32,000 nucleotides of DNA from Nostoc sp. PCC 7120 = FACHB-418 (lineage in GTDB: Bacteria; Cyanobacteriota; Cyanobacteriia; Cyanobacteriales; Nostocaceae). The notes below the pieces were generated by a model that saw only the letters and a program-made list of their open reading frames with translations, was not told where the DNA came from and made no database searches. Below are positions 4,123-31,924 of this stretch, in pieces (position 1 is the first letter of the stretch; every line of letters starts with the position of its first letter). A program made the translations under genes and the position numbers. Location of the stretch: contig NC_003276.1 in NCBI RefSeq assembly GCF_000009705.1, positions 30,001-62,000 of the forward strand. Direction: 5' to 3'.

Positions 4123-4145
4123 GCTACGCCGAAGCGAGAGTGATG
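4123..4145 (+). repeat. Intergenic leader motif, copy 1 (short form)
   Basis: aaacgGCTACGCcgAAGCgagAGTGATG. Confidence 0.8.
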
Positions 4146-5485: not shown

Positions 5486-5713
5486 ATGATAGAACAACCT
5501 CAAAACCAAAGATTATCTTAAGTACTAGCCGTAGATGGTATTTCTCAGCAACAAGCCCGTGCAAAATTAGCAGAAATATCTAGGCTATTAACTAAATTTC
5601 AACAAGTTTACTCCACAATTTATCAATATCTTTGCGCTAATGCAGAGGACGTAACTTTAGCTGATGCTATTCAAGCGGGGCTAACTAAAACGGCTACGCC
5701 AAAGCAGAAGTGA
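5486..5713 (+). pseudogene. Protein-like 75-codon reading frame interrupted by an in-frame TAA at 5519-5521
   Basis: MIEQPQNQRLS*VLAVDGISQQQARAKLAEISRLLTKFQQVYSTIYQYLCANAEDVTLADAIQAGLTKTATPKQK*. There is no ATG/GTG/TTG downstream of the TAA. The 3' end coincides with motif copy 2. Confidence 0.3.
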
Positions 5714-6458: not shown

Positions 6459-6488
6459 GCTACGCTTAAGCAAAGCGAAAAAATGAGG
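6459..6488 (+). repeat. Intergenic leader motif, copy 3 (long form)
   Basis: tgaaaGCTACGCttAAGCaaagcgaaaaAATGAGG. The GCTACGC core lies 39 nt upstream of the ATG at 6498. Confidence 0.75.
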
Positions 6489-6497
6489 TACTGAACA

Positions 6498-7559
6498 ATG
6501 GTACAAGCGATCGCTAACGAAACATTTCTAGCAGATGCAGTAGTTGAGCATTACAACTTTTCTAAGCTAAATAAAACTCGGATTCGGTTCAAAATTCAAC
6601 TCAAGAAAACCACTAAAAGCAATGCGCCGAAGTGGACTGATGTTTTGCAAGCGGATAACGAAGAAGAATCAGATTTACTCAAAGTTAAATCCTCGGAAGT
6701 TGGGTTGAAGGGCATCAAAGTCTTCAAAGCACTGGACGAAGCAGCAAGTCAATTGCGCTCTGAGATTGCATCGATTCAAGAGTGGATGAGTAACGACAAC
6801 GGGGATTGGATTTGTCCGATAGACCTCGCGCCCCTGGTGTGGAGTCAGTTGCTCAACATTAGAGATGTAGTTGCTCCTGATTTACGTGCTGGTTTAAAAA
6901 ATGAGTATGAAAAAGGTTTAGCTGATTACGTTGAGCGAATTGACAAATTCATCTCGTTAAATGTCTGGGATTTACCACCAGAAAAACGTGAGGAAGTTAA
7001 AGCGAACTTGCTCAAAGCTTTCCCATTACTGTCAGATTTGGAAGAATATCTGCAAGTAGTTATCGGTCGTCCGGTAATTATCCCGGCACTGTCTGAACAG
7101 TTGAACTCCGAGCAAGCCAAGTGCCTTCAACAGATAACCCAGTTCATTCAGCAGTACGACCAAAACCTAGAACAAAGGTTGAGGGAATCAGCGATCGCTG
7201 GAGGAGAACAACTAGCAGCCCAATTGCTAGATGAACTCGCCAACTGGGAACCAGGACGTAAGCCCGTGCTATTTAAGAAAAAGATGGATCAGCATCTTAA
7301 GCGGGTGCAGGTTTTATTGGCAAATGCCTCACCGGAGGCTGGAGCCAGTCTTGAGCAAATGATGAGTCACCTGGACTCAATCGTCAATGACCCAGGTATT
7401 ACCCAAAAGAACCTGGATTCACAAGGGCGATCTCAACTCCAGACGAAAATGGATACAATCTACTCCAAATTGTTGGACGAGCAACGCAATCTGCAACAGT
7501 TAGCAAGCAGCGATGTTGGGTTAACTCAAGCCACTGTTAAATCGTTTAAGTTCCGTTAG
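6498..7559 (+). CDS. Hypothetical protein (353 aa), possibly DUF3150-like
   Basis: Long clean ORF. Its general layout reminds me of the phage/plasmid DUF3150 family, which accompanies AAA ATPase and WGR genes in other mobile elements. This is unverified. Confidence 0.75.
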   Translation: MVQAIANETFLADAVVEHYNFSKLNKTRIRFKIQLKKTTKSNAPKWTDVLQADNEEESDLLKVKSSEVGLKGIKVFKALDEAASQLRSEIASIQEWMSNDNGDWICPIDLAPLVWSQLLNIRDVVAPDLRAGLKNEYEKGLADYVERIDKFISLNVWDLPPEKREEVKANLLKAFPLLSDLEEYLQVVIGRPVIIPALSEQLNSEQAKCLQQITQFIQQYDQNLEQRLRESAIAGGEQLAAQLLDELANWEPGRKPVLFKKKMDQHLKRVQVLLANASPEAGASLEQMMSHLDSIVNDPGITQKNLDSQGRSQLQTKMDTIYSKLLDEQRNLQQLASSDVGLTQATVKSFKFR

Positions 7560-7565
7560 AAAAAA

Positions 7566-7594
7566 GCGATGCCCTGAGAAATTCGGGGCATTGC
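7566..7594 (+). terminator. Stem-loop after the 353-aa gene
   Basis: GCgATGCCCtGAgaaaTCgGGGCATtGC is an imperfect stem with no clear T-run. Confidence 0.35.
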
Positions 7595-7621: not shown

Positions 7622-8071
7622 ATGTCACATTTTACACAACTCAAAACTAAACTCACCAATCGTGATTGCTTAGTTCAAGCTCTAGAGGATTTGAAGCTTC
7701 AGCCCCATGTTTTTGAGCAACCGCAGCCGTTAGCTGGCTATTATATGGATTCGCAGGGGTACAGTGCAGAGATTATTATCTTCGGCAGGACAATCAAAGC
7801 CCGTGCAGACATTGGTTTTCGCTGGAATCAAAGCAGTGGTGTGTACGAGGTTATACACGATGAGTATGAAACATCTCCGCGACTTGGTGAAGATTTCTTC
7901 AGCCACAAGTTAATGCAGACTTACGGGCGGCGGATGGTTTTAGCCAAAACTGAAGAATTACGCGAAAAGTTTGGCGAATGCACGATTAGCGAAGAAACCA
8001 AAGGTCAAGTGCAAACCCTACGGTTGACTTTTGCAGGACATCAAGAAGTTAAACAATACGCCAGGAGATAA
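7622..8071 (+). CDS. DUF1257 (Ycf35-like) domain protein
   Basis: The N-terminus MSHFTQLKTKLTNRDCLVQALEDLKL matches the MSHF(T/S)xhKTxhxD...L..AL..LG opening characteristic of DUF1257, recalled from memory. Confidence 0.75.
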   Translation: MSHFTQLKTKLTNRDCLVQALEDLKLQPHVFEQPQPLAGYYMDSQGYSAEIIIFGRTIKARADIGFRWNQSSGVYEVIHDEYETSPRLGEDFFSHKLMQTYGRRMVLAKTEELREKFGECTISEETKGQVQTLRLTFAGHQEVKQYARR

Positions 8072-8074
8072 TCA

Positions 8075-8284
8075 ATGGAACGTTCTATACTGATACATTT
8101 CGATAACAAAACGGGTTCAGTGCGAGTAGAAGCTCTTGGGTTTGAGGGGTTGTCGTGTTTGGAAGCAACCCAGCCGTTTGAAGAAGCGTTAGGAGTTGTT
8201 GAGGGCGAACGAGAGTTTAAGCCCGAAGCGCAATCTCAGCAACTACGGACTAACAATAATCATCAGACTCGCTTGCGCCAGTAG
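8075..8284 (+). CDS. DUF2997 domain protein
   Basis: ILIHFDNKTGSVRVEALGFEGLSCLEATQPFEEALGVV fits the DUF2997 pattern (I.I..dG.v.iE..G..G.sC...T..lE.aLG). It starts 3 nt after the DUF1257 stop. Confidence 0.7.
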   Translation: MERSILIHFDNKTGSVRVEALGFEGLSCLEATQPFEEALGVVEGEREFKPEAQSQQLRTNNNHQTRLRQ

Positions 8285-8319
8285 TTAAGAAAAAGAGGGG
8301 TGAAAATCCCCTCAACATC

Positions 8320-8577
8320 ATGAACGAATTACCAAAAGAATACCCATTTATCCACGTTTATACACAGCAAAAAGCACATCAGCCGGTGATCATCAAAGGT
8401 AATACCGAAGGCTTATGTGTGCTTCTGAACGCCATAGTTACGGCAATTGCACACCGAGACTGTAACGGTGTAGCTGAAGTATTTGACGGCGATGCCGAAG
8501 TTTTTGAAGTGAGAGTTCAAATAGTTAAGACTCACTCTGAACTTGCACCACTACCGTATAAGGAATTACACCAATGA
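8320..8577 (+). CDS. Hypothetical protein (85 aa), translationally coupled to the AAA+ gene
   Basis: Its stop overlaps the ATPase ATG (ATGA at 8574-8577). It is preceded by the small hairpin GAGGGGtgaaaatCCCCTC. Confidence 0.55.
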   Translation: MNELPKEYPFIHVYTQQKAHQPVIIKGNTEGLCVLLNAIVTAIAHRDCNGVAEVFDGDAEVFEVRVQIVKTHSELAPLPYKELHQ

Positions 8578-10199
8578 ACCTAAATAATATATTCTCCACG
8601 CTGGATTCACAAATACCTATTGTGGCATTAGAAGTTCTCTCGCCAGAAGAAGCCACAATCATCCAGTGGTTAACAGCCAATGCACACGAGAAATTGAAAT
8701 CTGCGGTATTCTTCTGGAATCTGGGAGTATCGGGATTGGAACAGTGTGAGATTGCCTCTGATGGTGGGTTGGTATTTAAACCAGTACCAGAGTACAAAAA
8801 ACCACCCCACGCTGACCCGTTGTTGTACATTTTCGAGTACATTAACAATTTTGATGGTACAGGTGTATTTATCCTCAGTGATGTGCATCCATTTGTGGGC
8901 AAGAACTCGCCTCAACTGAGTTGGGAAATCCTCACACGGGTGAAGAACCTCTATCACCGACTCAAACCCACAGAAAAACGCATTATCTTCTTAGGTCAAA
9001 ATATCGAACTGCACGAGTCGCTAATTCGGCTGATTCCCTATGGTGAAGTGCCATTGCCAACCGTAGAACAAGTGCAAGAGCATATATATTCCTACCTCAA
9101 CTATTTGTCTGAATCTGCCATTGAACAAGACGTACTATTTCGTGTCCTGTTAAGTACTGAAGAAAGAGAAACTTTAGCACGGGCAGCTTTGGGATTAACT
9201 CTGGAGGAAATTAGTGATTTCTTGCGCTTGACTGTCAAAGAGCGTTTGAGTAGCAATGGTATTACTATTGATGCTACTGTTACGCCGATGGTAGTTGAGT
9301 ATAAAACTCGGCTACTCTCTCAAATGGGTATTGAGCTAGGTAAACCTGCACTCTACTCGTTCGGCGGACTTGATTTATTGCGTGAGTGGTTGAATCGGCG
9401 GCGCAAACTGTTCACGCAAGAAGCCAGAAACCTGCAACTGCCACAACCTAAAGGCATACTGCTGGCTGGCCCACCCGGAACGGGAAAAAGTCATTGTGCA
9501 AAGAATATTGCCAATATCCTCAATTTACCACTACTCAAGCTTGATATTGCTTCGATGCTTGGCTCTTTGGTAGGGGAGTCTGAGGGCAATGTCCGCCGCG
9601 CACTCAAGACAGCCGAAGCGATCGCACCCTGCGTTTTGTGGTTAGACGAGTTGGAAAAAGCCTTATCCGGGCAGGGTGATACAAGCGGTGTTTCCCAAAG
9701 AATACTCGGTACTGTCCTCACTTTCATGAGCGAATGTACTTCGGGGGTGTTTGTTGTCGCAACTTGCAATGACGTGACTGCACTCCCAACGGAACTCAAA
9801 CGCAAGGGTCGTTTCGATGAAACCTTCTTTGTAGATTTACCCTCAGAACCAGAGAGAGCGCAAATCCTCAAGATTCACCTGGAGCGATTCGGCATCAATG
9901 TAGAGTCAGAATACCTGGAAGCGATCGCCGCCAACACCTCTAAATTCTCTGGGGCGGAATTAGAAACTCTAGCATCTGAAGCCGCACTACTGGCATTCGA
10001 GCAAGAGCGACCCCAACAGGTGACTTTAGGAGACTTGGAAGAATGCCGTAAAACCATTACCCCACTTGCTGTCCAAGATGCGGCGGCGGTTGAGCGTATG
10101 AGGGAGTGGGCGAAAACTGCAAGGGCGGCATCAACGGCGATTGCGGATACAAAACCCACTCAGTCGATTAAAACTGCGCGGTATCGCAACATGAATTAA
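8574..10199 (+). CDS. AAA+ ATPase, Ycf46-like (N-terminal domain plus one classical AAA module)
   Basis: Walker A is GILLAGPPGTGKSHCAK and Walker B is VLWLDELEKAL. Sensor and arginine-finger region: ATCNDVTALPTELKRKGRFDETFFVDLP. The N-terminus (IPIVALEVLSPEEATIIQWL) resembles cyanobacterial/plastid Ycf46. Confidence 0.9.
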   Translation: MNLNNIFSTLDSQIPIVALEVLSPEEATIIQWLTANAHEKLKSAVFFWNLGVSGLEQCEIASDGGLVFKPVPEYKKPPHADPLLYIFEYINNFDGTGVFILSDVHPFVGKNSPQLSWEILTRVKNLYHRLKPTEKRIIFLGQNIELHESLIRLIPYGEVPLPTVEQVQEHIYSYLNYLSESAIEQDVLFRVLLSTEERETLARAALGLTLEEISDFLRLTVKERLSSNGITIDATVTPMVVEYKTRLLSQMGIELGKPALYSFGGLDLLREWLNRRRKLFTQEARNLQLPQPKGILLAGPPGTGKSHCAKNIANILNLPLLKLDIASMLGSLVGESEGNVRRALKTAEAIAPCVLWLDELEKALSGQGDTSGVSQRILGTVLTFMSECTSGVFVVATCNDVTALPTELKRKGRFDETFFVDLPSEPERAQILKIHLERFGINVESEYLEAIAANTSKFSGAELETLASEAALLAFEQERPQQVTLGDLEECRKTITPLAVQDAAAVERMREWAKTARAASTAIADTKPTQSIKTARYRNMN

Positions 10200-10203
10200 T
10201 AAC

Positions 10204-10242
10204 GAGAGCAATTGCTATTTTTAATAAGATAGCAATCGCTCT
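10204..10242 (+). terminator. Long stem-loop after the AAA+ gene
   Basis: GAGAGCAATTGCTAT (10204-10218) pairs with ATAGCAATCGCTCT (10229-10242). Confidence 0.45.
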
Positions 10243-10321
10243 GATTGCAAAATTCTGAACATCGCCTATAACTTAGAAGCAATTATTTCTTGTTTCAATA
10301 CAAAAATTCAGGAATAGGAAG

Positions 10322-10564
10322 ATGCCCCAAATGCCTGAATTTACCAAAGTGAACTCTCTTGAAACACCAACTGCTGTTTATTCAGTGGGGAAAATTATCA
10401 AGTTCTGGGATATAGGCGAACGAGCTTGGCTCAAAGGTAAGATTACGGCGATAACTCAGTGTGAAGGGTATTTTGTGAGCGCCACAGTTTCACACCAGAG
10501 CTTCAAAAAGAAGCGAGAAATCCAGATAAATCGGGAAGATTGGCTAGATACGAAAACTGAGTAA
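10322..10564 (+). CDS. Hypothetical protein (80 aa)
   Basis: ORF with an AGGAA-type RBS. VGKIIKFWDIGERAWLKGKITAI hints at a small beta-barrel (Tudor/SH3-like) fold. Speculative. Confidence 0.5.
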   Translation: MPQMPEFTKVNSLETPTAVYSVGKIIKFWDIGERAWLKGKITAITQCEGYFVSATVSHQSFKKKREIQINREDWLDTKTE

Positions 10565-10602: not shown

Positions 10603-10625
10603 GCTACGCAAAAGCAAAAGTGATG
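10603..10625 (+). repeat. Intergenic leader motif, copy 4 (short form)
   Basis: taattGCTACGCaaAAGCaaaAGTGATG. The GCTACGC core lies 40 nt upstream of the GTG at 10643. Confidence 0.8.
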
Positions 10626-10642: not shown

Positions 10643-11188
10643 GTGGAAATATATTTAGTTTTTGTTGATGCTGCCAGTAACAGCAATAAGTTTTGGACAG
10701 CTAAAGTTGAACAAAATCAGCTAACTGTCCAATGGGATCGAGTGGGGTACAAAGCCCAAACGAAAGTTCATCAATTCACAAGTCAAGCGCAAGCTGCAAA
10801 TAAATATAATAATCTAGTTTTTGAAAAGAAGGCTAAAGGCTACCAAGAGAGTCAGCCCCAGATAGAATCATGTGGTGTTGTGGATATAAGGAGAGCAATG
10901 CAACTATTAAATGGTTTACGCTCTTACGTAACTAATAGAAATTTCAATGCTGATTACATTAACCTATTGAATCAATATTTAAAAATCATTCCTACACCTT
11001 TAGGAATGCAGCTAGAGCCTTATAGGATTTTCACAAGTGTTGCAGATGTAGACCATCAACGCGAACTGCTCAGTTCTCTAATTCCTGCAACTCCTGTAGC
11101 TGTAACTCAGGCTAAACAAATGCCAGAATCACAAGAGAAGATTGTTAGCCTCAGAGGTATTCACAAAAATCTTTGGCGGCATTTCTAG
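10643..11188 (+). CDS. WGR-domain protein with a PARP-helical-domain-like C-terminal half and no ADP-ribosyltransferase domain
   Basis: SNKFWTAKVEQNQLTVQWDRVGYKAQTKVHQFTSQAQAANKYNNLVFEKKAKGY matches WGR (sNKFY...WGRiG...f.s..eA...f..l...K..KGY), with WDRVG in place of WGRIG. The C-terminus LLNQYLKIIPTPLGMQLEPYRIFTSVADVDHQRELLSSL aligns by eye with human PARP1 [37 protein letters not shown], recalled from memory. GTG start with an AGAGGA RBS. Confidence 0.75.
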   Translation: MEIYLVFVDAASNSNKFWTAKVEQNQLTVQWDRVGYKAQTKVHQFTSQAQAANKYNNLVFEKKAKGYQESQPQIESCGVVDIRRAMQLLNGLRSYVTNRNFNADYINLLNQYLKIIPTPLGMQLEPYRIFTSVADVDHQRELLSSLIPATPVAVTQAKQMPESQEKIVSLRGIHKNLWRHF

Positions 11189-11457: not shown

Positions 11458-11486
11458 GCTACGCTAAAGAAAAACGATAATGAATG
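11458..11486 (+). repeat. Intergenic leader motif, copy 5 (long form, most diverged)
   Basis: aaacaGCTACGCtaAAGAaaaacgatAATGAATGG. The GCTACGC core lies 41 nt upstream of the second in-frame ATG (11499). Confidence 0.65.
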
Positions 11487-13339: not shown

Positions 13340-13849
13340 ATGACTACCATAGAAACTTCACGTTTATTATTGCGTCCATTGAAGCTCACAGATTTAGAGG
13401 ACTTAGCACAAATATACAGCAATCCTGAAGTGATGAAGTATCGTTTATTTCCTAAACCAACTTCACTTCTGGAAACTCAAGCTTTTTTAGAATCCTACAT
13501 TGCACATTGGCAGCGATATGGGTTTGGTCGATGGGCAACGATTTATAAAGCCAATGAGCAACTAATAGGGCATTGTGGGCTAGAACATATAGAATTTCTT
13601 AACAAAGTGGAAGTGAATTATTTACTCGCAAGCCAATATTGGGGACAGGGGTTAGCAACAGAATCCGCTATTGCCGTTGTCAACTATGGTTTTGAAGTCC
13701 AGCAATTCGAGCGATTAGTAGCACTGGCTAAACCAGATAATCTCGCATCACTTCGAGTCATGGAAAAAATAGGCATGAGCTATCAAACTAAAATCCGACT
13801 CCATAATGTAGAGTGGGTACTCTATGAAATAGAGCGCCAACTGCATTAA
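13340..13849 (+). CDS. GNAT family N-acetyltransferase (RimJ/RimL-like)
   Basis: TSRLLLRPLKLTDLEDLAQIYSNPEVMKY... and QYWGQGLATESAIAVVNYGF (Q/RxxGxG/A acetyl-CoA loop) are typical of the RimJ/RimL subgroup. Confidence 0.85.
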   Translation: MTTIETSRLLLRPLKLTDLEDLAQIYSNPEVMKYRLFPKPTSLLETQAFLESYIAHWQRYGFGRWATIYKANEQLIGHCGLEHIEFLNKVEVNYLLASQYWGQGLATESAIAVVNYGFEVQQFERLVALAKPDNLASLRVMEKIGMSYQTKIRLHNVEWVLYEIERQLH

Positions 13850-15601: not shown

Positions 15602-15946
15602 AAAAAGTAAATTATCACTCAACAAACACAATACATAGGTCAGAATCAAGAACTATTCAAAAGGGTGAGGACGTTTTGCTCATCAAATGACATTCCTTGT
15701 GGAAGTTAAGAGTGCATTGTAGTCCTACGGCTTTTAAATATTGGCTTTTGAGTTCTGTGTTCTAATATTACTGTACAAAGAAAGGATTTCTAAATTAACC
15801 CTACTTACTAGAGTATTACAGTATTATTAATATAATTAGTTGCCAGTAAGTTTCACGCATTGTTTTGATGAGTATCAAATAATAGAAGACGAAGGAGAAA
15901 GCAAAATAATATGGCTTTATTAAAGTTGTTATGCAGATGAATAAGG

Positions 15947-15983
15947 GGAGCGATCGCACTCCGGCAAAGAACTGCGATCGCTC
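15947..15983. promoter_or_regulatory. HIP1-based 11-bp perfect stem-loop in the divergent intergenic region
   Basis: GAGCGATCGCA ... TGCGATCGCTC. Confidence 0.4.
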
Positions 15984-16026
15984 ATTCCGCTCCTAAAGAC
16001 ACTAACTCCATAGGAGGGTACTTAAT

Positions 16027-16368
16027 ATGGTACGAGGATTAGAAAACAAGTTCAATCATCAAGAAGAAGTTTTTCACATAGAAGATGAACAAAAGCCAAA
16101 GAATCAGATTGAGGAAATTGCAGTTAGAGCAGTTAAATTAGCTGGGTTATCAGTAAGACTTGGTGATTATGAGTTTGTCTCTACATCGGTTAGATTGCTT
16201 GAGCCATTTATCAAAGCTTGGTACGCAAAAGCAGGAATTGAACCACCATCGACGGCGACAATATCTCGTTGGTTTTATGATTCGCCGCCAAAGTGGGCAA
16301 TCGCTTTATTAGTGAACGAAAAAGAAAAAATTTTTGAAAAAGTAGCGCGGAAATGCAAAATTCCGTAA
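16027..16368 (+). CDS. Hypothetical protein (113 aa)
   Basis: Strong RBS (TAGGAGGG, 7 nt upstream) and a terminator downstream. Confidence 0.6.
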   Translation: MVRGLENKFNHQEEVFHIEDEQKPKNQIEEIAVRAVKLAGLSVRLGDYEFVSTSVRLLEPFIKAWYAKAGIEPPSTATISRWFYDSPPKWAIALLVNEKEKIFEKVARKCKIP

Positions 16369-16392
16369 AATCCTACAATTTTGCAAAATCCG

Positions 16393-16425
16393 AAAAAGCC
16401 CTTGTTTTTAGCAAGCGGCTTTTTT
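16393..16425 (+). terminator. Rho-independent terminator
   Basis: AAAAAGCC...GGCTTTTTT with an inner TTG/CAA pairing. Confidence 0.6.
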
Positions 16426-16446
16426 ATTGTTAAGAAACAAGTCTAA

Positions 16447-16547
16447 TTAACAGTTAATACACCGTGTGTTAACAGTGAAAGTAATATCAAATTGACACGG
16501 ATATTGACACAGATGTTGACTAACTTAATTTAACTATTGACTACCGA
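16447..16547 (+). promoter_or_regulatory. 21-bp palindrome followed by four phased TTGAC-containing 12-mers immediately upstream of the 16550 ATG
   Basis: GTTAATACACcGTGTGTTAAC at 16453-16473. ATTGACACGGAT 16491-16502, ATTGACACAGAT 16503-16514, GTTGACTAACTT 16515-16526, ATTGACTACCGA 16536-16547. Confidence 0.55.
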
Positions 16548-16549
16548 GA

Positions 16550-16966
16550 ATGAATCAATCATGGAGAGAAGAACTTTTTAATCAAGAAACCACAAATTCG
16601 GCATTAAATCCCCTGGTTTTACCCATGACAAATGCCCAATCCTTGAGAATTTTGGACATCTGCTATCGAACTTGGGGACGTTGGGAAGAAGTGGCTCAGA
16701 CGATAGCTCAGTATAAACTAGCACAAATACAAATGAAGAACTTTGCCCAAGAACACAGCCTTAGAGCGCCACCAATTCTTCCTTATCAAGTTTGGGTGGT
16801 GGGAAAAATAGGAGAAATCTTTTGTGGTTTAGCTCAAGGGACAAATAAGTTGAATCTCGCTAAAGCAATTGTGGGGGCGAATAAATCTCTGTACAGCCGT
16901 AAAGAGTTTGAAGCCGAACAAATTAGATTTACACAACCGTTAACAGGAGAATTACAAAATGTCTAA
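16550..16966 (+). CDS. Hypothetical protein (138 aa)
   Basis: ORF whose stop overlaps the next start by 8 nt. Confidence 0.6.
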   Translation: MNQSWREELFNQETTNSALNPLVLPMTNAQSLRILDICYRTWGRWEEVAQTIAQYKLAQIQMKNFAQEHSLRAPPILPYQVWVVGKIGEIFCGLAQGTNKLNLAKAIVGANKSLYSRKEFEAEQIRFTQPLTGELQNV

Positions 16967-17675
16967 TAAGGATACATTCACCCGTCAAGAATTATTTGAA
17001 CTGTTAAGCGCCAGTTATCCCCCAGAGAAAATCATTGCAGGGTTACAAGAGTTAGCCAAAACAGACCCAAGCATTGATCCAAATGGAGAAGAATTTGATG
17101 TGGAGGTGAGCGATCGCTTGGAGAGGTTATTTAACCTAGCCGAGACAGTGATAGACCAAGCCAAACTATTGGGAGCAGGAGGAAGCCTGACAAATTTAGA
17201 AACTCAAGCCATTAATAAAACAGTTGAGCAATTGAAGGCTCAGGGTATATCAGGAGAAACGTTTCGCGCATTCTTAGAGATTGCGGCGGGGACAACGGTT
17301 GCTCAAGCGTTTGCCGTTCACAACTTCAAATCACAGTTGTTTGACGACATTTCACAAGAACTAGATGTTCAACTGTTGCAAGAGCGTACACAAGCAGGTG
17401 TTGAAGAAATTTCGCTCATCTACCAAATCATTAAAGATCCTCAAACTAAAGAGAAAATCATCTCTGAGTACGGTTTAAAAACGCCCCAACAGCTTAAGAA
17501 TGAAGTTCAAACTTTGACAGGAACTTCTACACCTGAGTTTGACCCATTGAAGTTTTTTGAGGAGGTAGGTTTACCAGTCGAAGCAAAAAAGTCAGTGCAA
17601 CCCAAGACTATACAGGATTTGCGAACGCTAACCCAGCATTTATTCAAACGACAACCAAATCAAGCTACAGCGTAA
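16959..17675 (+). CDS. Hypothetical acidic protein (238 aa)
   Basis: Clean ORF coupled to the upstream gene. Confidence 0.65.
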   Translation: MSNKDTFTRQELFELLSASYPPEKIIAGLQELAKTDPSIDPNGEEFDVEVSDRLERLFNLAETVIDQAKLLGAGGSLTNLETQAINKTVEQLKAQGISGETFRAFLEIAAGTTVAQAFAVHNFKSQLFDDISQELDVQLLQERTQAGVEEISLIYQIIKDPQTKEKIISEYGLKTPQQLKNEVQTLTGTSTPEFDPLKFFEEVGLPVEAKKSVQPKTIQDLRTLTQHLFKRQPNQATA

Positions 17676-23240: not shown

Positions 23241-23402
23241 ATGATGTTTCTAGAACTAACCATATCATCTGGTGATGGCTTAACATCCGGCATCGGCATT
23301 TATCTGACTATCCCTGATAGTGCAACAATTGAACTGATTGCCATTGTCCAAGGTGACACTTATTCGAGTCTGGACGCTAGTTACTTTAACTATTTGGGCT
23401 GA
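23241..23402 (+). CDS. Possible small ORF or gene fragment (53 aa)
   Basis: MMFLELTISSGDGLTSGIGIYLTIPDSATIELIAIVQGDTYSSLDASYFNYLG*. The tail resembles the C-termini of cyanobacterial Ca-binding/RTX-like exoproteins, so it may be a remnant. Confidence 0.3.
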   Translation: MMFLELTISSGDGLTSGIGIYLTIPDSATIELIAIVQGDTYSSLDASYFNYLG

Positions 23403-23469
23403 TTGTTTGTTAAAAGCTAATCGTATGGTGGTAGCCAAAAATTTATCTACCATGTTTATAAATATTGAT

Positions 23470-24024
23470 ATGAAAATAGTAACCAAGAGATTTTTGCTGC
23501 GTGATTTCGTTGAATTAGATCGATTGCCATTTTTAAACTATCAAGCCGATCCACGCAGTCAAATATTTTCTGAATCTAACCAAGCTAGTCCCGAAAATTC
23601 AGCACGTTTGTTTGAAACATTTTGCACATGGGCTTGTGAGCAGCCTCGACTTAATTACCAACTGGCGATTGTTCAACGGCGTGAACCTTACGCACTTGTT
23701 GGCTGTTGCGGACTGAGGGGAAGAGGGTTTGATGCAGGTGAAATGGAGCTAGGAATTGAACTTGCACCAGATTATTGGGGACGATATGCTTATGCGATCG
23801 AGGTTGGGAGCGCCCTGCTTGACTTCGGATTCAGGGAACTAGGGCTAAATGTCATCTCTGGTTCCACAGTTAGTGCAAATGTGCGGATCGCTCGGTTGGC
23901 AAAGTGGAGCGGAGCAGAAGTAGTTACTATCCGTCCGGGTTCGAGATGGATGTCCCAACGAGGTTGGAGCGAGGTAAACTGGCAAATCACTAGAGCGCAG
24001 TGGAACAGTCGCATCACTGTTTGA
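23470..24024 (+). CDS. GNAT family N-acetyltransferase (RimJ/RimL-like)
   Basis: Starting at Met45 of the track ORF: MKIVTKRFLLRDFVELD...GIELAPDYWGRYAYAIEVGSALLDFGF. Confidence 0.85.
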   Translation: MKIVTKRFLLRDFVELDRLPFLNYQADPRSQIFSESNQASPENSARLFETFCTWACEQPRLNYQLAIVQRREPYALVGCCGLRGRGFDAGEMELGIELAPDYWGRYAYAIEVGSALLDFGFRELGLNVISGSTVSANVRIARLAKWSGAEVVTIRPGSRWMSQRGWSEVNWQITRAQWNSRITV

Positions 24025-24247: not shown

Positions 24248-24363
24248 CGCATAGGTTGAAACACAGGGGAAATGTCAATACAACTGGTTCTTTAAGTTAT
24301 TTTTGAGAAGATGAAAATAACACCAGTATTTAATTCTCCACTTTTACTTTGAAAGTAATAACT

Positions 24364-24386
24364 GCGAATTGCGAATTGCGAATTGC
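24364..24386. repeat. Heptamer tandem repeat (GCGAATT x3), STRR-like
   Basis: GCGAATTGCGAATTGCGAATTGC. Confidence 0.85.
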
Positions 24387-24426
24387 CTATGTCTATCCCC
24401 TCACCCTGGCAACCTTAGAAACTAGC

Positions 24427-24960
24427 ATGATGATGAATGATCTGCACATTGAGTTGATACATCAGTTATTTGCGGCATCAGACAAAATTAATCTGCCCCT
24501 GTGGTTGCAGGGCGGGTGGGCTATTGATGCGAAATTACATCGGATCACACGGGAACATGAAGATATTGATATTGCTTATCCAGGCGATCGCCACGCTGAA
24601 TTTCTCTGCTTGCTGCACGCTTTCGGCTGTGTTATCACCGAGCAAACCTCTTATGGTTTTTTGGCTCAGAGTCAGGGTATTCTTCTCGACTGTGAACCGT
24701 GCGTTCGGATTGCCGACGATTACGAGTTAGAGGGATTGCCTCCAGGAACTTGCCCACTAGAACCGAATGGCACTCTTGGCGGAAAGTTAGTACGATGCAC
24801 AAGTTGGGAAGCTATTCTCTGGGATTACTTCTATTATCTCGAAGAGGTTCCACAAAGTGAATGGCGACCAAAAGACTTTCACAGTTTTGCTCTAGCTAAA
24901 GACTCATTTGGCGAGGCTGCAACACACAATTTGCATGAGCAATTTAAGCGTCTATATTAA
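24427..24960 (+). CDS. Aminoglycoside 2''-nucleotidyltransferase family protein (ANT(2'')-Ia / AadB homolog)
   Basis: From Met27: LIHQLFAASDKINLPLWLQGGWAIDAKLHRITREHEDIDIAYPGDR...YGFLAQSQGILLDCEP...GTCP...LVRCTSWEAILWDYFYYLEEVP. This tracks AadB as I remember it (LIHKILAAADERNLPLWIGGGWAIDARLGRVTRKHDDIDLTFPGER...YGFLAE...LLDCEP...GSCP...VRCNSWEAIIWDYFYYADEVP). Confidence 0.8.
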   Translation: MMMNDLHIELIHQLFAASDKINLPLWLQGGWAIDAKLHRITREHEDIDIAYPGDRHAEFLCLLHAFGCVITEQTSYGFLAQSQGILLDCEPCVRIADDYELEGLPPGTCPLEPNGTLGGKLVRCTSWEAILWDYFYYLEEVPQSEWRPKDFHSFALAKDSFGEAATHNLHEQFKRLY

Positions 24961-25236: not shown

Positions 25237-27483
25237 TCATCCCATCGACTGTAACAACCTCTGCCACAACCGCGTGTACCTCTGCTGGTCATCTGTAGTT
25301 CGCACAGCCAGAGCGATCGCCTTCTTAGAGCCAACCACAATCGCCAACTTCCTTGCGCGAGTTAAACCAGTGTAAAACAAATTCCGCGAAAGCATGACAT
25401 AGTGTTGCATGAAAAGTGGAAATATCACCACCGGAAACTCTCCGCCCTGGCTTTTATGCACAGAGATACTAAATGCCAGCGTTATCTCGTTCAAATCAGC
25501 ATAATCATAAACCACAGCCCGACCACCATACTCAACCGTAACCTCTTGTTCCTCCGTGTCGATACTCAGAATAGTCCCCAAATCTCCATTGAACACCTCA
25601 CGGTCATAGTCATTCATTTGTTGAATTACGCGATCGCCCTCCCGCAAAACCATCCCACCCCGGTTAATCTCGACTTTCCCCTGTGCAGGCGGATTGATCA
25701 GCTGCTGTAAAACAGCATTAAGATTTCGCGTCCCGACTAACCCCCGCGACATCGGGGATAGCACCTGCACATCAGTCGAGGGATTGAAGCCCAGCCGGGG
25801 GATAAACTCGCCTACCAATTCGCAGATTGCTTGGACTCCGTGTTCAGGACTGTGGCCACCACCATGCCACAAGCAGTCCGACTGCGGATTATCTGAGATT
25901 GGTTCTATATTTGGATAGTCACCCTGGTTGATTTGATGCGCTGCCGTGACAATCGCACTTTGCTGGGCTTGGCGAAATACTTGCGTTAGCTTGACCACCG
26001 GGACTTGCAGCGAGGTAATCAAATCTGCTAACACTTTACCAGGGCCAACTGAGGGTAATTGGTCGATGTCTCCCACCAGTAATAGTTGCGCTCCTTGTGC
26101 TACTGCTTTCACTAGGGAATGTGCCAGAAACAGATCCAGCATCGAAGCTTCATCAGCAATAATGGCACTGAAGGGTAAGGGATTTTCGTTATCCCGCTTA
26201 AATCCCATAGTTTTAGGGTCAAACTCCAGCAAGCGGTGAATGGTTTTCGCTTCAAGTCCTGTCATTTCCGATAATCGTTGTGCGGCTCTCCCAGTTGGTG
26301 CAGCCAAGGCGATGCTTTTGCTCATCGCTTTCCACAATGAGACAATCGTGTGTGTCGTGAAAGTTTTGCCCACGCCAGGGCCACCAGTCAGAACCATTAC
26401 GGGTGAGTACGCTGCCATCTCCACTGCTTTCTGCTGTTGGGGTGATAGCTCAATCTTGCGGCTGGACATAAAGCGATCTAGCCATGTACGGACACGGGGG
26501 ATGTCTTGTTTGACTTGTTGGCGTAACCGTCGAGATATCAACTGTGCTAAGTTTTGTTCTGTGTGGAAGAAGCTCGGCTTATAACAGAGTAATAATTTTT
26601 CTCCGTAGCTGTCCCTGACAAATTCCCTGATCAGTTCTTCCTTGGTTGACATATCTTTGATGATGTCCGCGATCGCATCCTCTGTTGGCTGGTGGTCATC
26701 TGTTGTTAGTAGTTTGATAACTTTTTCGATTAGTTCCGGCTGGGGGAGATAACAGTGACCATCCTCAGCAGCTTCACTCAATGCGTGGATGATTCCAGCA
26801 CTGTATCGAAACTCTGAGCTTGTTGGTACGCCCAGGTTTCTCGCAATCTTGTCGGCTGTGAGAAAGCCGATACCGTAGATGTCGGTGGCAAGCTGGTACG
26901 GGTTCGCGGTGACGGTGGCGATCGCCTGATCCTGATATTGCTTGTAAATTTTGACTGCATAGGTAGTCGATACGCCGTGGGTTTGCAAGAACACCATCAC
27001 CTCTTTGATGGCTTTTTGCGTCTCCCAGGCATTCTTGATTAGCTTGATGCGCTTCTTGGCGATACCTTGTACTTCGATGAGGCGGTCAATTTGGTTTTCA
27101 ATGATGTCGAGGGTTTCTAAACCGAAATGTGCAACAATGCGTCTTGCTGTGACAGGCCCGACTCCTTTGATTAGTCCACTGCCCAGGTATTTCTCAATCC
27201 CTGTGAGGGTTGCAGGTTTGGTTTCGTGGTAGTTAGTGACATTAAACTGTGGCCCGTACTGGGGGTGATCCTTCCAGAAACCAGTTAGCTGAAGCGTTTG
27301 CCCTGGTTGGATGTTAGCGAAGCTGCCGACGATGGTGGTCAGGTCGGTACTGCGGGAGCGGGTTAGGCGTGCGACTGTGTAGCCTGACTCCTCTGAGTGG
27401 AAAGTCAGGCGCTCGACTACTCCGGTGATGGTTTCGTAGTGGGGTTGTACTGATGATTGTTGTGCTGTGGGTAGAGTGGACAT
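25237..27483 (-). CDS. recD2: RecD2-type SF1 ATP-dependent DNA helicase (RecD-like, with HhH region)
   Basis: N-terminus GVVERLTFHSEESGYTVARL. HhH region: GIEKYLGSGLIKGVGPVTARRIVAHFG. Walker A is VLTGGPGVGKTF. Also IADEASMLD, LLLVGDIDQLPSVGPG, FSISVHKSQGGEFPVV and LFYTGLTRARK. Confidence 0.9.
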   Translation of the reverse strand: MSTLPTAQQSSVQPHYETITGVVERLTFHSEESGYTVARLTRSRSTDLTTIVGSFANIQPGQTLQLTGFWKDHPQYGPQFNVTNYHETKPATLTGIEKYLGSGLIKGVGPVTARRIVAHFGLETLDIIENQIDRLIEVQGIAKKRIKLIKNAWETQKAIKEVMVFLQTHGVSTTYAVKIYKQYQDQAIATVTANPYQLATDIYGIGFLTADKIARNLGVPTSSEFRYSAGIIHALSEAAEDGHCYLPQPELIEKVIKLLTTDDHQPTEDAIADIIKDMSTKEELIREFVRDSYGEKLLLCYKPSFFHTEQNLAQLISRRLRQQVKQDIPRVRTWLDRFMSSRKIELSPQQQKAVEMAAYSPVMVLTGGPGVGKTFTTHTIVSLWKAMSKSIALAAPTGRAAQRLSEMTGLEAKTIHRLLEFDPKTMGFKRDNENPLPFSAIIADEASMLDLFLAHSLVKAVAQGAQLLLVGDIDQLPSVGPGKVLADLITSLQVPVVKLTQVFRQAQQSAIVTAAHQINQGDYPNIEPISDNPQSDCLWHGGGHSPEHGVQAICELVGEFIPRLGFNPSTDVQVLSPMSRGLVGTRNLNAVLQQLINPPAQGKVEINRGGMVLREGDRVIQQMNDYDREVFNGDLGTILSIDTEEQEVTVEYGGRAVVYDYADLNEITLAFSISVHKSQGGEFPVVIFPLFMQHYVMLSRNLFYTGLTRARKLAIVVGSKKAIALAVRTTDDQQRYTRLWQRLLQSMG

Positions 27484-28130: not shown

Positions 28131-31100
28131 TCAGAGACATTCACGACTCATTACTAAATCTCCATTGGCTAGCCGATACACCCCTTGAGGTTCCACAATC
28201 AGCTCGCCTTTTTTCCATGAACTCGCTGCACTGTTATTAGTCACACTCTGCACATCACCTGTAGGATAACTAGAAGCCGCCGCCTCACCAGGACGATGAG
28301 GTAAACTACCAGTGCCGGTAATAATAAAAGTGCCTTCTTGCTTAGGGCTGCGAGCAATGCAACTATTAGCAATTAGGGCGTTAGTATCAATGGGATTGTT
28401 TTCTAATTCTGTCAGGCCGTTTTGGATAAAACTTATATCAGGCACACCGATAATATTACCTGAGACTGTACCAGTGGCATTAATGTCTGAGCGATTATTA
28501 TTACTCAATGACTGGAGGCTATTTCTATCAGATGTTGTTTGTCTAGGGCTATAGAGAGAATCACTAAACACAGCACGAGTGTTAAATCTAATATCGCCGC
28601 CTTGCCCCTCTGGTGCAAAGGCGAGAATATCGCTATCTTCTAAAGCGATGATGATATCTGCTGTGAGGGAAATATCACCGCCTTTACCATTACCACCTGA
28701 TAAATCAGTACGGATATCGCTGTTATTCCGCAAGCGGATGTTTCTAGCATTGATGTTAATATGACCTCCACCGGATTGTTCGGAGCTGGCACTTACTAAA
28801 CCATTATTCGCATTAAAATTACCTGTGGCTACAATATTGATATCCCCTGCAACACCTTCTCCCAGACTGCTTGTGGCAACCGCGATGGGATAAGGAAGAT
28901 TAGAGTTAGTGGCGGATAAATTAAAGTCTGTTGTAAATAAGGATATATTCCCACCACCTCCACTAGAAGTAGTACCTGCTAACAAAGCAGTTAAGCCAGT
29001 GTTGCTAAAAATAGTAATGTTATCTGTAGCATTAATCGTAATATCACCCGCTTTACCACTGCTCATAGTTCCTGTCACTAAAACTCCCCCATTTAATACC
29101 TCAACCACACGGGCATTGATAGTAACATTACCTGCATTACTAGAATTGCCTGTCGCTGATGATATCGTAGCTTTGTCTGCTAGACGGAAGTAATCTGTGT
29201 TGACTATGATATCGCCTCCCTGACCAAATGCTCCCTTTTGAGTTTCAGTTAATATTGCACTTGTAATACCATCAGCATTAAGTCCTGAGATGTTTACTGC
29301 ATTTGTAGCATTAATGCGAATACGTCCACCTTTACCTTGTACAGCAGGTAAGTCTTCCAAGGCTCCGAAAACGGAACTACTTATGCGACCGCCATTAATC
29401 AAAGTCAGCTTTGGTGTCTGAATATTAATATCTCCACCATTTCCAACTCCACTAGATCCCACATTACTATCGATCCAACCGTTATCAATTACCACCTCAT
29501 CATTGCTAAAAATAAAGATATTACCTGCATTACCTTGACCATCAGTTCCCGATGATATAACCCCCTTTATTAGCAATAACTTTCCTGTATTTATTGTTAA
29601 TTCACCACCTTTACCCACAGCAACGACATTATCATTAACAGCGAAAACGCTTGTGGAGATTAAACTGCCTTGATTCAGATTTGAACTAATTAATTCAACC
29701 GAATCCGAGGCATTGATAGTAATATTACCAGCTTGTCCTCCTAAATTATTACTGGCATCTACTGTAATTTGACCGCCATCTCTCACAATCAGATTTTTGG
29801 TATTCAGTGTTATATCGCCAGCACGACTGCTACTACCCGTTCTGGCTACAAAACCAGTTGTTGCATCTTTTGCATTTATCAAACCTTTTGGATCTATTTC
29901 AATGAAATCAGTAGCTGTAACATTAATATTGCCACCAGAACCAATGATTTGTCCTGGTGCTGGTTCTCCAGAGCTAGAAGAAATACTTCCTCTATTTGTT
30001 ATAGTAATTCGTTCAGTTTGAATATTGATATTTCCAGCATTCCCTACATTAGAAATACCTAGCCCCATTAGTGAAGTTGTGGAGATATAAGATTGATTTA
30101 GAAAAATGTCGCGCGCATTAATATTTAGATTAGAGCCATTTCCACTACCAGAACTACCAGATGTTATAATAGAATTATTATCAAGATTCAAGCGGTTGGT
30201 AATAATAGATAAATTACCTGCATTACCTTCTCCAGAAGTATCTGAGGTTATAGAAGAATTGTTATCAAGACTCAAGCGGTTGGTAATAATAGATAAATTA
30301 CCTGCATTACCTTCTCCAATAGTCCTTGCAGTAATACTTGATTCATTTAAACTAATGTAATCGGTAGCTTGAATCTTAATTTCTCCAGAATTACCTACAA
30401 ATAAATTATTAGGATTTGTCAAAACACCATCTGCAAGTAACAAATTTCGTATGCTGACACTATTTATGAAAGAACCATCTGCGAGTGACAGATTGCGCGC
30501 TTGAATATTAATGCCACCATCGCTGAAAATCAAACTGCTCGGAAAATCTGCATTTTTTCCAGAAAGAGCAATTGTATCATCAACTATAACATTAATAATT
30601 CCTGAATTACCTTGTTGGCTATTTATAATTAGCCAACCACTGTTAATAAGTTTTAGTGATTGACCAACAATATTGATATTTCCACTATTCCCCAAGCCTA
30701 AAGAAACATTGCCAATAAAACTACTTTCGGCAATAGTAACTATTCCAGTAGCATTAATAGAAATATCACTAGTTTTAGTCTCAGGATTACCTTGATTAGA
30801 AATTAAAAATGTTTGCAAACTGCTAAAATTTAATAAATTGAAGTTATGAGCATGAAATACAATATCATCACCTTCCGTACCGAGAACAAAAGTAGCAACA
30901 TTAGAATTATTAATTAATGAAATATCTGTTCTAGCCACACCATTAGGAAATGCCAAGCTCAAATTATCATCATTAACCTGAAGCCCGACGCTGCCAGGTG
31001 CAGTTAATCCACCAATTTCGACCCTACCACCTAATGCTTCAATGATTCCACCATCCATCAAAATTTGCCCACTAGCGTCAGGTGTAGGTGCAACATTACC

Positions 31101-31700: not shown

Positions 31701-31924
31701 TGGCTTTTCCTTGCTTCCCCCGATGGGTACATATGTTAGCTGTAGCACCTGCTATTCACTTTGAAGCCTGGGGGCATAAATTGCAACTCCGCATAACTTG
31801 ATAGAAATTGCAATACAGTTTTATCCACTTTTACATACATCATTGTGCTGATATAGATGCTAAAACCTGCATCTAACCTTTCATAAAAGCTGAAGGACTA
31901 AGAGATTATTTATAAAGTAAATCT

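Follow-up and report, generated by a model that had tools for sequence, protein, structure and literature searches.

A five-gene operon in Nostoc sp. PCC 7120 is the Nostocales-plasmid form of a widespread Ycf46-type AAA+/DUF1257/DUF2997 module

We analyzed a 32,000-nt stretch of Nostoc sp. PCC 7120 = FACHB-418 (contig NC_003276.1, positions 30,001 to 62,000 of the forward strand), hereafter the window; all coordinates are counted from its first letter. An earlier note on this DNA, made from the sequence alone, had described a compact cassette of four genes, and the listing of open reading frames (ORFs) contains all four on the plus strand at exactly the positions given there. They encode a DUF1257 (Ycf35-family) protein of 149 amino acids (aa; 7622..8071), a DUF2997 protein of 69 aa (8075..8284), a protein of 85 aa (8320..8577) and a Ycf46-like AAA+ ATPase of 541 aa (8574..10199). 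The genes are separated by gaps of 3 nt and 35 nt and then joined by a 4-nt ATGA overlap between the stop of the 85-aa gene and the start of the AAA gene; a small GC-rich hairpin (GAGGGG..CCCCTC, 8295..8313, strand unassigned) lies in the 35-nt spacer between the DUF2997 and 85-aa genes. These four genes are the core of a larger, five-gene operon, which starts at a 353-aa ORF for a DUF3150-like helical protein (6498..7559, plus strand) outside the coordinates of the earlier note. The order along the plus strand is a leader motif (GCTACGCTTAAG, 6459..6470, 39 nt upstream of the 353-aa gene), the DUF3150-like gene, a conserved stem-loop just 3' of its stop codon (GCGATGCCC..GGGCATTGC, 7566..7594), DUF1257, DUF2997, the optional 85-aa gene, the Ycf46-like AAA+ gene and a terminal stem-loop 5 nt 3' of the AAA stop codon (GAGAGCAATTGCTAT..ATAGCAATCGCTCT, 10204..10242). 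The cassette is the Nostocales-plasmid form of an old and widespread Ycf46-type AAA+/DUF1257/DUF2997 module.

To place the cassette among its relatives, we scanned for loci with a seven-sequence DUF1257 alignment as the seed, using one genome per species. Of 436 confirmed loci the best 80 were kept, which consisted of 34 Nostocales loci with one fixed gene order (type A) and 46 others, mainly picocyanobacterial ycf35 loci. Counted over loci with enough flank, DUF2997 was present in 32 of 33 Nostocales loci and the AAA gene in 29 of 29. AAA+ orthologs with more than 76% identity are found throughout Nostocales, often several per genome, and some of them, as well as near-identical cassettes, are located on 7-9 Mb contigs. 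The window itself is cyanobacterial accessory DNA with a GC content of ~40% and frequent HIP1 palindromes, and its closest DNA matches were Nostoc and Trichormus megaplasmids (72-81% identity), 9 of 12 of which were typed as conjugative. In Nostoc sp. MS1 plasmid pNSMS102 (locus L001; L numbers denote individual loci) and Trichormus variabilis plasmid A (L002), synteny is kept over a large part of the array of small co-directional genes that includes the operon; in pNSMS102 a DUF1392 block to the left is syntenic as well. The T. variabilis array runs from the CyRepA1 replication gene, beside which it starts, to the vicinity of a RecD-like helicase gene, and a RecD2-like helicase gene is also found in the window (25237-27483, minus strand). 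Defence islands, namely dpdE and a Dnd-type phosphorothioation cluster, lie across CyRepA1 from the array in T. variabilis plasmid A (L266, 302724-340533). Together with carriage by phages and integrated elements described below, the megaplasmid matches bear out the accessory, mobile setting that had been proposed for the cassette.

Pfam confirmed the DUF1257, DUF2997 and AAA assignments, which had previously been made by motif. The DUF1257 protein matched PF06868 over profile positions 1-103 of 103 (E 2.4e-19; 69.9 bits vs a cut-off of 22.2) as well as phrog_20456, and the DUF2997 protein, with a conserved G-x-x-C core, matched PF11211 over positions 1-46 of 47 (E 1.8e-13; 50.6 bits vs a cut-off of 24.1) as well as phrog_23133. 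The window DUF1257 protein carries M1, S2, H3, F4, D63, G65 and F66. In an 11-sequence alignment M1, S2, D63 and G65 were invariant and F66 nearly so; the M-S-H-F N-terminus was invariant in seven closer homologs, and H3 and F4 vary in wider sets. This M-S-H-F / D-x-G-F criterion was derived in the present analysis and is not a published one. M-S-H-F is largely kept from Nostoc plasmids to cyanophages, and M-S-H reaches Aeromonas and Agrobacterium phages. Once the Met is removed, the protein would start with Ser-His, and this may matter for function. In some plasmids a divergent second DUF1257 paralog (28% identity) is present just upstream of the main one (L001:11562-11999; L022:7562-7999; L034:7544-7999). 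DUF2997 adjoins DUF1257 in nearly every locus examined and, because its start lies 3 nt past the DUF1257 stop, the two genes are probably translationally coupled.

The 353-aa ORF had no direct Pfam match, even at E <= 10. However, positional homologs of ~355 aa from loci L016, L011 and L012 matched PF11348 at 9e-18, 4e-5 and 7e-3, respectively; the partner in L009 had no PF11348 match. When a profile of the window protein was compared with the L009/L011/L012/L016 partners, hhalign returned a probability of 89.7% (E 1.9e-6, 222 columns), and the ~355-aa proteins located beside the DUF1257/DUF2997/AAA triad in distant AAA+ relatives are mutually homologous (blastp E 1e-15 to 1e-49). The DUF3150-like gene was directly upstream of DUF1257 in 32 of 32 Nostocales loci with enough flank and was also found in unrelated elements. 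In pNSMS102 it is interrupted by a group II intron (ltrA) and a TnpB element (L001:6787-10029).

The 85-aa protein had no Pfam, PHROG or PADLOC match. Its counterparts in L001 and L002 share 60-78% identity with it, and an alignment of the family has 29 invariant columns; the gene occurs in 15 of 29 type-A loci and is confined to Nostocales. What the earlier note had counted as part of the set is an optional, lineage-specific extra. A relationship to the KTSC protein in the corresponding slot in Crocosphaera or to the DUF2283 protein in Calothrix was rejected (hhalign probabilities of 1.6% and 0.1%, respectively).

Both stem-loops that had been taken to bound the four genes exist. The one at 7566-7594, however, is not an operon boundary, as the conserved upstream position of the DUF3150-like gene shows. 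The 62-nt spacer that holds it folds at -22.3 kcal/mol, and its position is kept in most of ~30 type-A loci, with differing stem sequences and compensatory double changes in 6 of 11 pairs. Because the position is conserved with compensatory changes, we place this hairpin inside the operon. Three loci lack it, and there the spacer is 32-36 nt long. The stem-loop at 10204..10242 is probably the operon end. A hairpin of the GCGATTG..CAATCGC type is found 3' of the AAA gene in most type-A loci, followed in some Nostocales loci by a T-run and then by a GCTACGC leader motif. In the window neither flanking hairpin is a canonical intrinsic terminator: no T-run follows 7594 or 10242, and the terminator scan lists neither on the plus strand, its only entry being a short minus-strand candidate (10232-10248) that overlaps the second hairpin.

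The leader motif is a recurrent element of the array. Five exact copies of GCTACGCNNAAG are present, all on the plus strand (4123-4134, 5693-5704, 6459-6470, 10603-10614 and 11458-11469), each 17-96 nt upstream of a plus-strand ORF. With one additional single-mismatch match the observed count is six, which was reached in 0 of 100 shuffles. In T. variabilis plasmid A the motif keeps its position before the orthologous DUF3150-like gene, and in several Nostoc loci it comes after the post-AAA hairpin. The motif probably serves the plasmid gene array as a promoter or 5'-leader element, and the copy at 6459..6470 probably marks the start of the transcription unit. The earlier note had described it as a shared motif carried by the neighbors of the cassette; it does precede the 353-aa gene and the downstream WGR gene, but there is no copy ahead of DUF1257.

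The ATPase matched Pfam AAA (PF00004; E 1.4e-29, residues 295-421) and AAA_lid_3, as well as phrog_8638 (E 2e-100). In an alignment of 80 sequences, K305 (Walker A), D358/E359 (Walker B), N399 (sensor-1) and R410/R413 (arginine fingers) were invariant or nearly so, and residues 286-500 form a classical AAA module and lid with intact catalytic motifs, which is probably active. Residues 1-285 had no Pfam match, and no PDB-sequence match was found outside the AAA core. The AlphaFold2 model of the protein has a predicted local distance difference test (pLDDT) value of 93.6, and in Foldseek all 541 residues of this model align to the D1+D2 tandem of the type II AAA+ unfoldases Rix7, p97, Cdc48, Pex1/6 and Drg1 with template-modeling (TM) scores of 0.6-0.66; phage proteins named 'ycf46' in BFVD reached TM scores of up to 0.81. 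From this full-length superposition it follows that residues 1-285 correspond to a D1-like AAA module that has degenerated. In it, 'LSPEEA' occupies the expected place of the P-loop, and the model shows an N-terminal D1-like ring module that is predicted to be catalytically dead. By model and Foldseek, the 'Ycf46-type N-domain' noted before is therefore not a novel fold. Pore loop 1 reads S-L-V-G-E-S-E (family consensus 'GSLVGESE'), in which Leu replaces the aromatic residue of the canonical aromatic-hydrophobic-Gly pattern.

Among characterized machines, the type II unfoldases (p97/Cdc48, Rix7, Drg1/Afg2, Pex1/Pex6 and NSF) are thus the closest in architecture. The best sequence matches to the active module are p97/Cdc48, and the presence of one inactive ring is shared with NSF-D2 and Pex1/6-D1. 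However, the window ATPase is half the size of these proteins and has no separate N-terminal cofactor-binding domain, its D1 lacks a P-loop entirely, its pore loop is L-V-G, and its cofactors would be DUF1257 and DUF2997 rather than adaptors of the UBX or Ufd1 type. The protein is alignable end to end with its family (e.g., query residues 1-526) among the 150 best representatives, and relatives in UniRef and BFVD are named 'ycf46'. These representatives form two large full-length groups, distinguished by an N-terminal motif: IPIVALEVLSPEE in the smaller group, to which the window protein belongs, and RARYPLIYLVSWEE in the larger one (group 2), which includes a chromosomal Calothrix protein.

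ycf35 and ycf46 are long-standing conserved 'hypothetical' genes of cyanobacteria and algal plastids, with indirect phenotypes only. We compared the cassette with the chromosomal loci of both. In the 46 ycf35-type loci, which are mostly from picocyanobacteria, DUF2997 precedes DUF1257 in 43, and the DUF1257 proteins show ~30-40% identity to the window protein (mostly 35-38%). An AAA gene was absent within 8 kb in 45 of the 46 loci, 44 of these being DUF2997-DUF1257 pairs or lone DUF1257 genes, and no DUF3150-like or WGR gene was detected in any of the 46. The gene order of these loci agrees with the published chromosomal cluster, DUF2997-ycf35-fed7, in which the last is a ferredoxin gene. Thus, the two kinds of loci share adjoining genes of the same two Pfam families, whereas the window has the reverse order, ~35% identity, no ferredoxin neighbor of the published kind and an AAA gene of a sort seen within 8 kb at only 1 of 46 ycf35-type loci. 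The cassette is therefore not a duplicate of the chromosomal ycf35 locus; it was such a duplication that the earlier note had named as a refutation.

The likeness to Ycf46 (slr0374, Synpcc7942_0417, plastid ycf46; COG 'SpoVK/Ycf46/Vps4') includes the length of ~500-540 aa, a non-ATPase N-terminal half followed by one active AAA module with a lid, and location in a small operon with short uncharacterized proteins, and the Nostocales orthologs are named 'ycf46' in UniRef. However, the window protein belongs by sequence to a sister group, is of plasmid type and is linked to DUF3150-like and WGR genes, and the likeness runs via family relatives rather than slr0374 itself. No cluster representative was named slr0374, Synpcc7942_0417 or plastid ycf46; the named cyanobacterial ones were from Gloeobacter, Crocosphaera and a Microcystaceae metagenome-assembled genome (MAG). 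On the chromosome of Calothrix sp. PCC 7103 (L064:5858-8736) a group-2 ATPase ('RARYPLLYL') is followed by two DUF1257 paralogs and DUF2283, beside GUN4, and this locus may be of the chromosomal ycf46 operon type.

Both ATPase groups are linked to DUF1257 and DUF2997, and a neighborhood census of the kind that the earlier note had suggested placed triads on plasmids, phages and integrated elements and also on chromosomes (Calothrix, Elusimicrobia). With shuffled gene orders, the triad was found on a 38.7-kb contig with Dam methylase, RecR and DnaG, in a Gloeobacter chromosomal island with a DnaN-like gene, in an integrase-bearing element with a WGR gene, in Crocosphaera, on an Elusimicrobia chromosome and on a phage-like 137-kb contig; another related locus has the order DUF2924, DUF3150, AAA. 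Cultured phages with the triad are Rhodobacter phage RcTiptonus (gp60/gp62/gp63), Agrobacterium phage JP1 (048/051/052), Aeromonas phage HJ05 (65/67/68), Pseudomonas phage SM1 (gp026/gp029/gp030) and the Rhizobium L338C group. In RcTiptonus, JP1 and SM1, lysis genes (holin or endolysin) sit just upstream of the module, which in SM1 is followed by the genes for DnaB helicase and DNA polymerase. Extra genes of 200-320 aa accompany the ATPase in several phages (RcTiptonus gp61, JP1_049, HJ05_66, SM1 gp027/gp028 and Corndog gp95); homology among them or to the DUF3150-like proteins was considered, and no match was found. In IMG/VR a group-2 relative of the ATPase occurs on 408 contigs, and both small genes were present in 30 of the 74 best with usable flanks; in metagenomes the count was 10 of 40. 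These two counts are lower bounds because home-made hidden Markov models were used. Corndog-type mycobacteriophages have the ATPase with no detectable DUF1257 or DUF2997, and Prochlorococcus phages P-SSM2, P-SSM5 and P-SSM7 have DUF1257 without the ATPase; a DUF2997-DUF1257 pair was confirmed in P-SSM2, where it sits among auxiliary genes (hsp20, a ferredoxin gene and purM). Two phage- or plasmid-like contigs that are unrelated to each other have orphan DNA methyltransferase genes directly after the triad (L006:11425-12993 and 15790-17247; L009:8294-9097).

Pfam analysis of 149 neighbors of 44 triads most often yielded Fer4_12 (10), Radical_SAM (8), DUF3150 (5), ParB (4) and RecA (3), and SSB and DnaN also recur beside the triad. 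The radical-SAM neighbor is NrdG/PflA-like over its full length, with a CxxxCxxC motif, and scores 78-105 bits vs an NrdG cut-off of 126. It was present in 18 of 40 viral loci that have DUF1257 or DUF2997 vs 0 of 40 loci with the AAA gene only (Fisher p = 6e-7), and half of the phage triads have it. A frequent viral order is AAA, DUF2997, radical-SAM gene, DUF1257 (interleaved examples are in L184-L263 from IMG/VR, e.g., L196:7398-8857, and also L097:4381-4956 and L098:8079-8726). The gene is absent from the window and from all 34 Nostocales loci, and no glycyl-radical enzyme family was found among the 25 commonest neighbor families. The likeness to the NrdG-NrdD and PflA-PflB systems is thus one of the phage relatives of the cassette, which interleave an NrdG/PflA-like gene with the triad; it differs in that the phage gene scores below the NrdG cut-off and that the window has no radical-SAM gene. 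Taken with the fed7 neighbor of the chromosomal pair, the phage gene hints, speculatively, at a redox or radical connection.

Downstream of the operon, an 80-aa ORF (10322..10564, plus strand) is 86% identical in L001 and has no family match, and its membership in the system is uncertain. It is followed by a second leader motif (GCTACGCAAAAG, 10603..10614, plus strand, 40 nt upstream of the WGR gene) and by the gene for a WGR-domain protein of 181 aa (10643..11188, plus strand; PF05406, E 8e-21, 74.4 bits vs a cut-off of 22), which thus has a leader motif of its own. The WGR gene lies downstream in 17 of 22 type-A loci with enough flank, and in an unrelated element (L012) a WGR gene is placed between the DUF3150-like and DUF1257 genes. 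The WGR protein weakly resembles the PARP_reg helical domain (E 1e-3) and has no catalytic domain. Further along, the window cargo includes two GNAT acetyltransferases, an aminoglycoside-2''-adenylyltransferase-like protein, the RecD2-type helicase and a 1205-aa TPS-domain (two-partner-secretion) protein (13340-13849, 23338-24024, 24349-24960, 25237-27483 on the minus strand and 28131-31748 on the minus strand).

The surveys above show a tight coupling of the small genes, with one another as well as with the ATPase, that spans phyla and mobile-element types. The interpretation of the cassette as two small adaptor or sensor proteins plus a remodeling ATPase, which the earlier note had put forward, remains the most economical one, and we infer it from the conserved arrangement. 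We favor, tentatively and at a little short of even confidence, the view that an AAA+ remodeling hexamer and its small-protein pair serve the establishment or replication of the mobile element itself. The ATPase would form a hexameric protein-unfolding or remodeling ring like its closest structural relatives. DUF1257 and DUF2997 would form a complex by which the ring is recruited or gated, as an adaptor, a sensor or an obligate first substrate. Through the DUF3150-like protein, which is helical, and the WGR protein, which binds nucleic acids, the machine would be attached to a DNA-protein complex. It would work for the mobile element, in its establishment or replication, and neither in housekeeping nor in host defence. 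Points in favor of this view are the gene content and motifs, the ATPase architecture, the fixed gene order in Nostocales, the recurrence of the triad in other elements and in cultured phages, the families found next to it (DUF3150, ParB, RecA, SSB and DnaN among them), the position of the array beside CyRepA1 in T. variabilis plasmid A and the lack of PADLOC models for the non-ATPase proteins of the conserved operon.

Several observations weigh against this role in element establishment or replication. For T. variabilis plasmid A, the incomplete PLSDB gene table lists neither a relaxase gene nor a type IV secretion system (T4SS) gene up to 50 kb to the left or right of the array, so that assignment of the array to a leading region is unsupported; no origin of transfer (oriT) was found near the array. 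The small partners were undetectable for about half of the sampled group-2 ATPases, so that the linkage is not universal. The triad also occurs among housekeeping genes in Elusimicrobia and Calothrix, and a role in cell physiology is therefore possible. The DUF1257 structure model was poor (pLDDT 53.8) and had no Foldseek match with E < 0.4, such that its fold gave no functional clue. Since pore loop 1 is L-V-G and not aromatic-hydrophobic-Gly, threading cannot be taken for granted. Split or truncated AAA+ ORFs occur in 7 of the 29 Nostocales copies (L019, L023, L031-L033, L035, L043, L045); this could reflect weak selection, and the splitting could be due to pseudogenization or to MAG assembly error. 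Finally, the putative physical interaction among the module proteins is deduced from gene linkage.

It is also possible, though rather unlikely in our estimate, that the module belongs to host physiology, i.e., that the plasmid copy shares a stress or redox job with chromosomal ycf46 and ycf35, such as a growth-arrest or acclimation checkpoint, and that mobile elements carry it as auxiliary genes with which to tune the metabolism of the host. The chromosomal ycf46 operon is strongly stress-induced and tied to growth arrest and CO2 use, the chromosomal DUF2997-ycf35 pair adjoins fed7, and ycf35 and ycf46 were lost together in red-algal plastids. The Calothrix chromosomal ATPase with its two DUF1257 genes beside GUN4 fits such a role, as do P-SSM2, P-SSM5 and P-SSM7, in which DUF1257 is present without the ATPase and the P-SSM2 pair lies among auxiliary genes. 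However, the triad is often carried by phages that infect non-photosynthetic bacteria (Pseudomonas, Aeromonas, Rhizobium and Agrobacterium), and the genes just downstream of the module in SM1 are those for DnaB helicase and DNA polymerase. In addition, plasmid and chromosomal proteins are only ~35-40% identical, and the plasmid type has switched to DUF3150-like and WGR partners, which are lacking at chromosomal loci.

Carriage by lytic phages would also agree with a function in anti-defence or host takeover, in which the small proteins would direct the AAA+ ring to host immune or regulatory proteins, and the ring would unfold or extract these soon after entry. We regard this as decidedly unlikely. 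The location of the cassette in a long co-directional array of small uncharacterized genes, which also includes a DnaQ-like exonuclease and the WGR gene, is in its favor, and so are the orphan methyltransferases immediately downstream in L006 and L009 and the quick turnover of accessory genes, with the 85-aa gene, KTSC and DUF2283 filling equivalent slots. But no known anti-defence domain is present, families of the DUF1257/DUF2997 type are unmentioned in the published leading-region study, neither a relaxase nor an oriT is listed near the array in the one complete plasmid, and copies in housekeeping contexts exist. The least likely explanation, and a highly improbable one, is that of an AAA+-based system for defence, abortive infection or toxin-antitoxin action, like IetAS ('IteA' in NCBIfam) or SgiAT, the latter being a precedent for an AAA+ antitoxin paired with an S8 protease. 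These are AAA+ ATPases of the same broad clade on mobile elements, the AAA core is matched by the IetA models (PADLOC 1.7e-25; NCBIfam 'IteA'), and other parts of T. variabilis plasmid A hold defence islands (Dnd, DpdE). The NCBIfam match, however, is limited to residues 285-478 and reaches 86 bits vs a cut-off of 510, and we rejected the PADLOC IetA and TRIP13 matches as generic to the AAA core. By Pfam the operon has no IetS, S8 protease or other effector domain, and no protease domain was found in the neighboring ORFs scanned between 6498 and 12389, although IetAS requires IetS. PADLOC had no match for the DUF1257, DUF2997, DUF3150-like (353-aa), 85-aa, 80-aa and 301-aa proteins and gave one weak match for the WGR neighbor (WGR_XIII, E 0.005). 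The defence role that the earlier note had entertained thus finds no support: the non-ATPase proteins of the conserved operon have no PADLOC signature, and the same triad is present in virulent phages.

A bolder form of the adaptor-and-ring model can be formulated, which we consider unlikely. The triad would be an unrecognized and very widespread machine of phages, plasmids and cyanobacteria, in which the DUF1257/DUF2997 pair gates a pseudo-tandem AAA+ unfoldase and the whole is wired to low-potential redox or radical chemistry, through the NrdG-like radical-SAM protein in phages and Fed7 in chromosomes. Ycf35 and Ycf46 would be two parts of one system, with the Nostoc plasmid form as its oxygen-tolerant derivative, in which the radical-SAM partner has been replaced by the DUF3150-like and WGR proteins.

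Within the library that we searched, no paper describes the triad, its DUF3150-like partner, its phage distribution or DUF3150. The individual families are already named or annotated, and the Nostoc cassette is a variant of an uncharacterized module; if this module is merely a redundant chaperone, the finding shrinks to an improvement of annotation. If the link to the glycyl-radical-activase-like phage partner is true, it would point to new biochemistry. The analysis also defines a common backbone block of Nostocales megaplasmids (DUF3150-like, DUF1257, DUF2997 and AAA+, with WGR nearby) and supplies tractable systems in Pseudomonas phage SM1, Aeromonas phage HJ05 and the Anabaena/Nostoc plasmids. 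The ycf35 and ycf46 families and DUF2997 are physically linked in hundreds of phage, plasmid and chromosomal loci, which provides a testable hypothesis that they form one machine.

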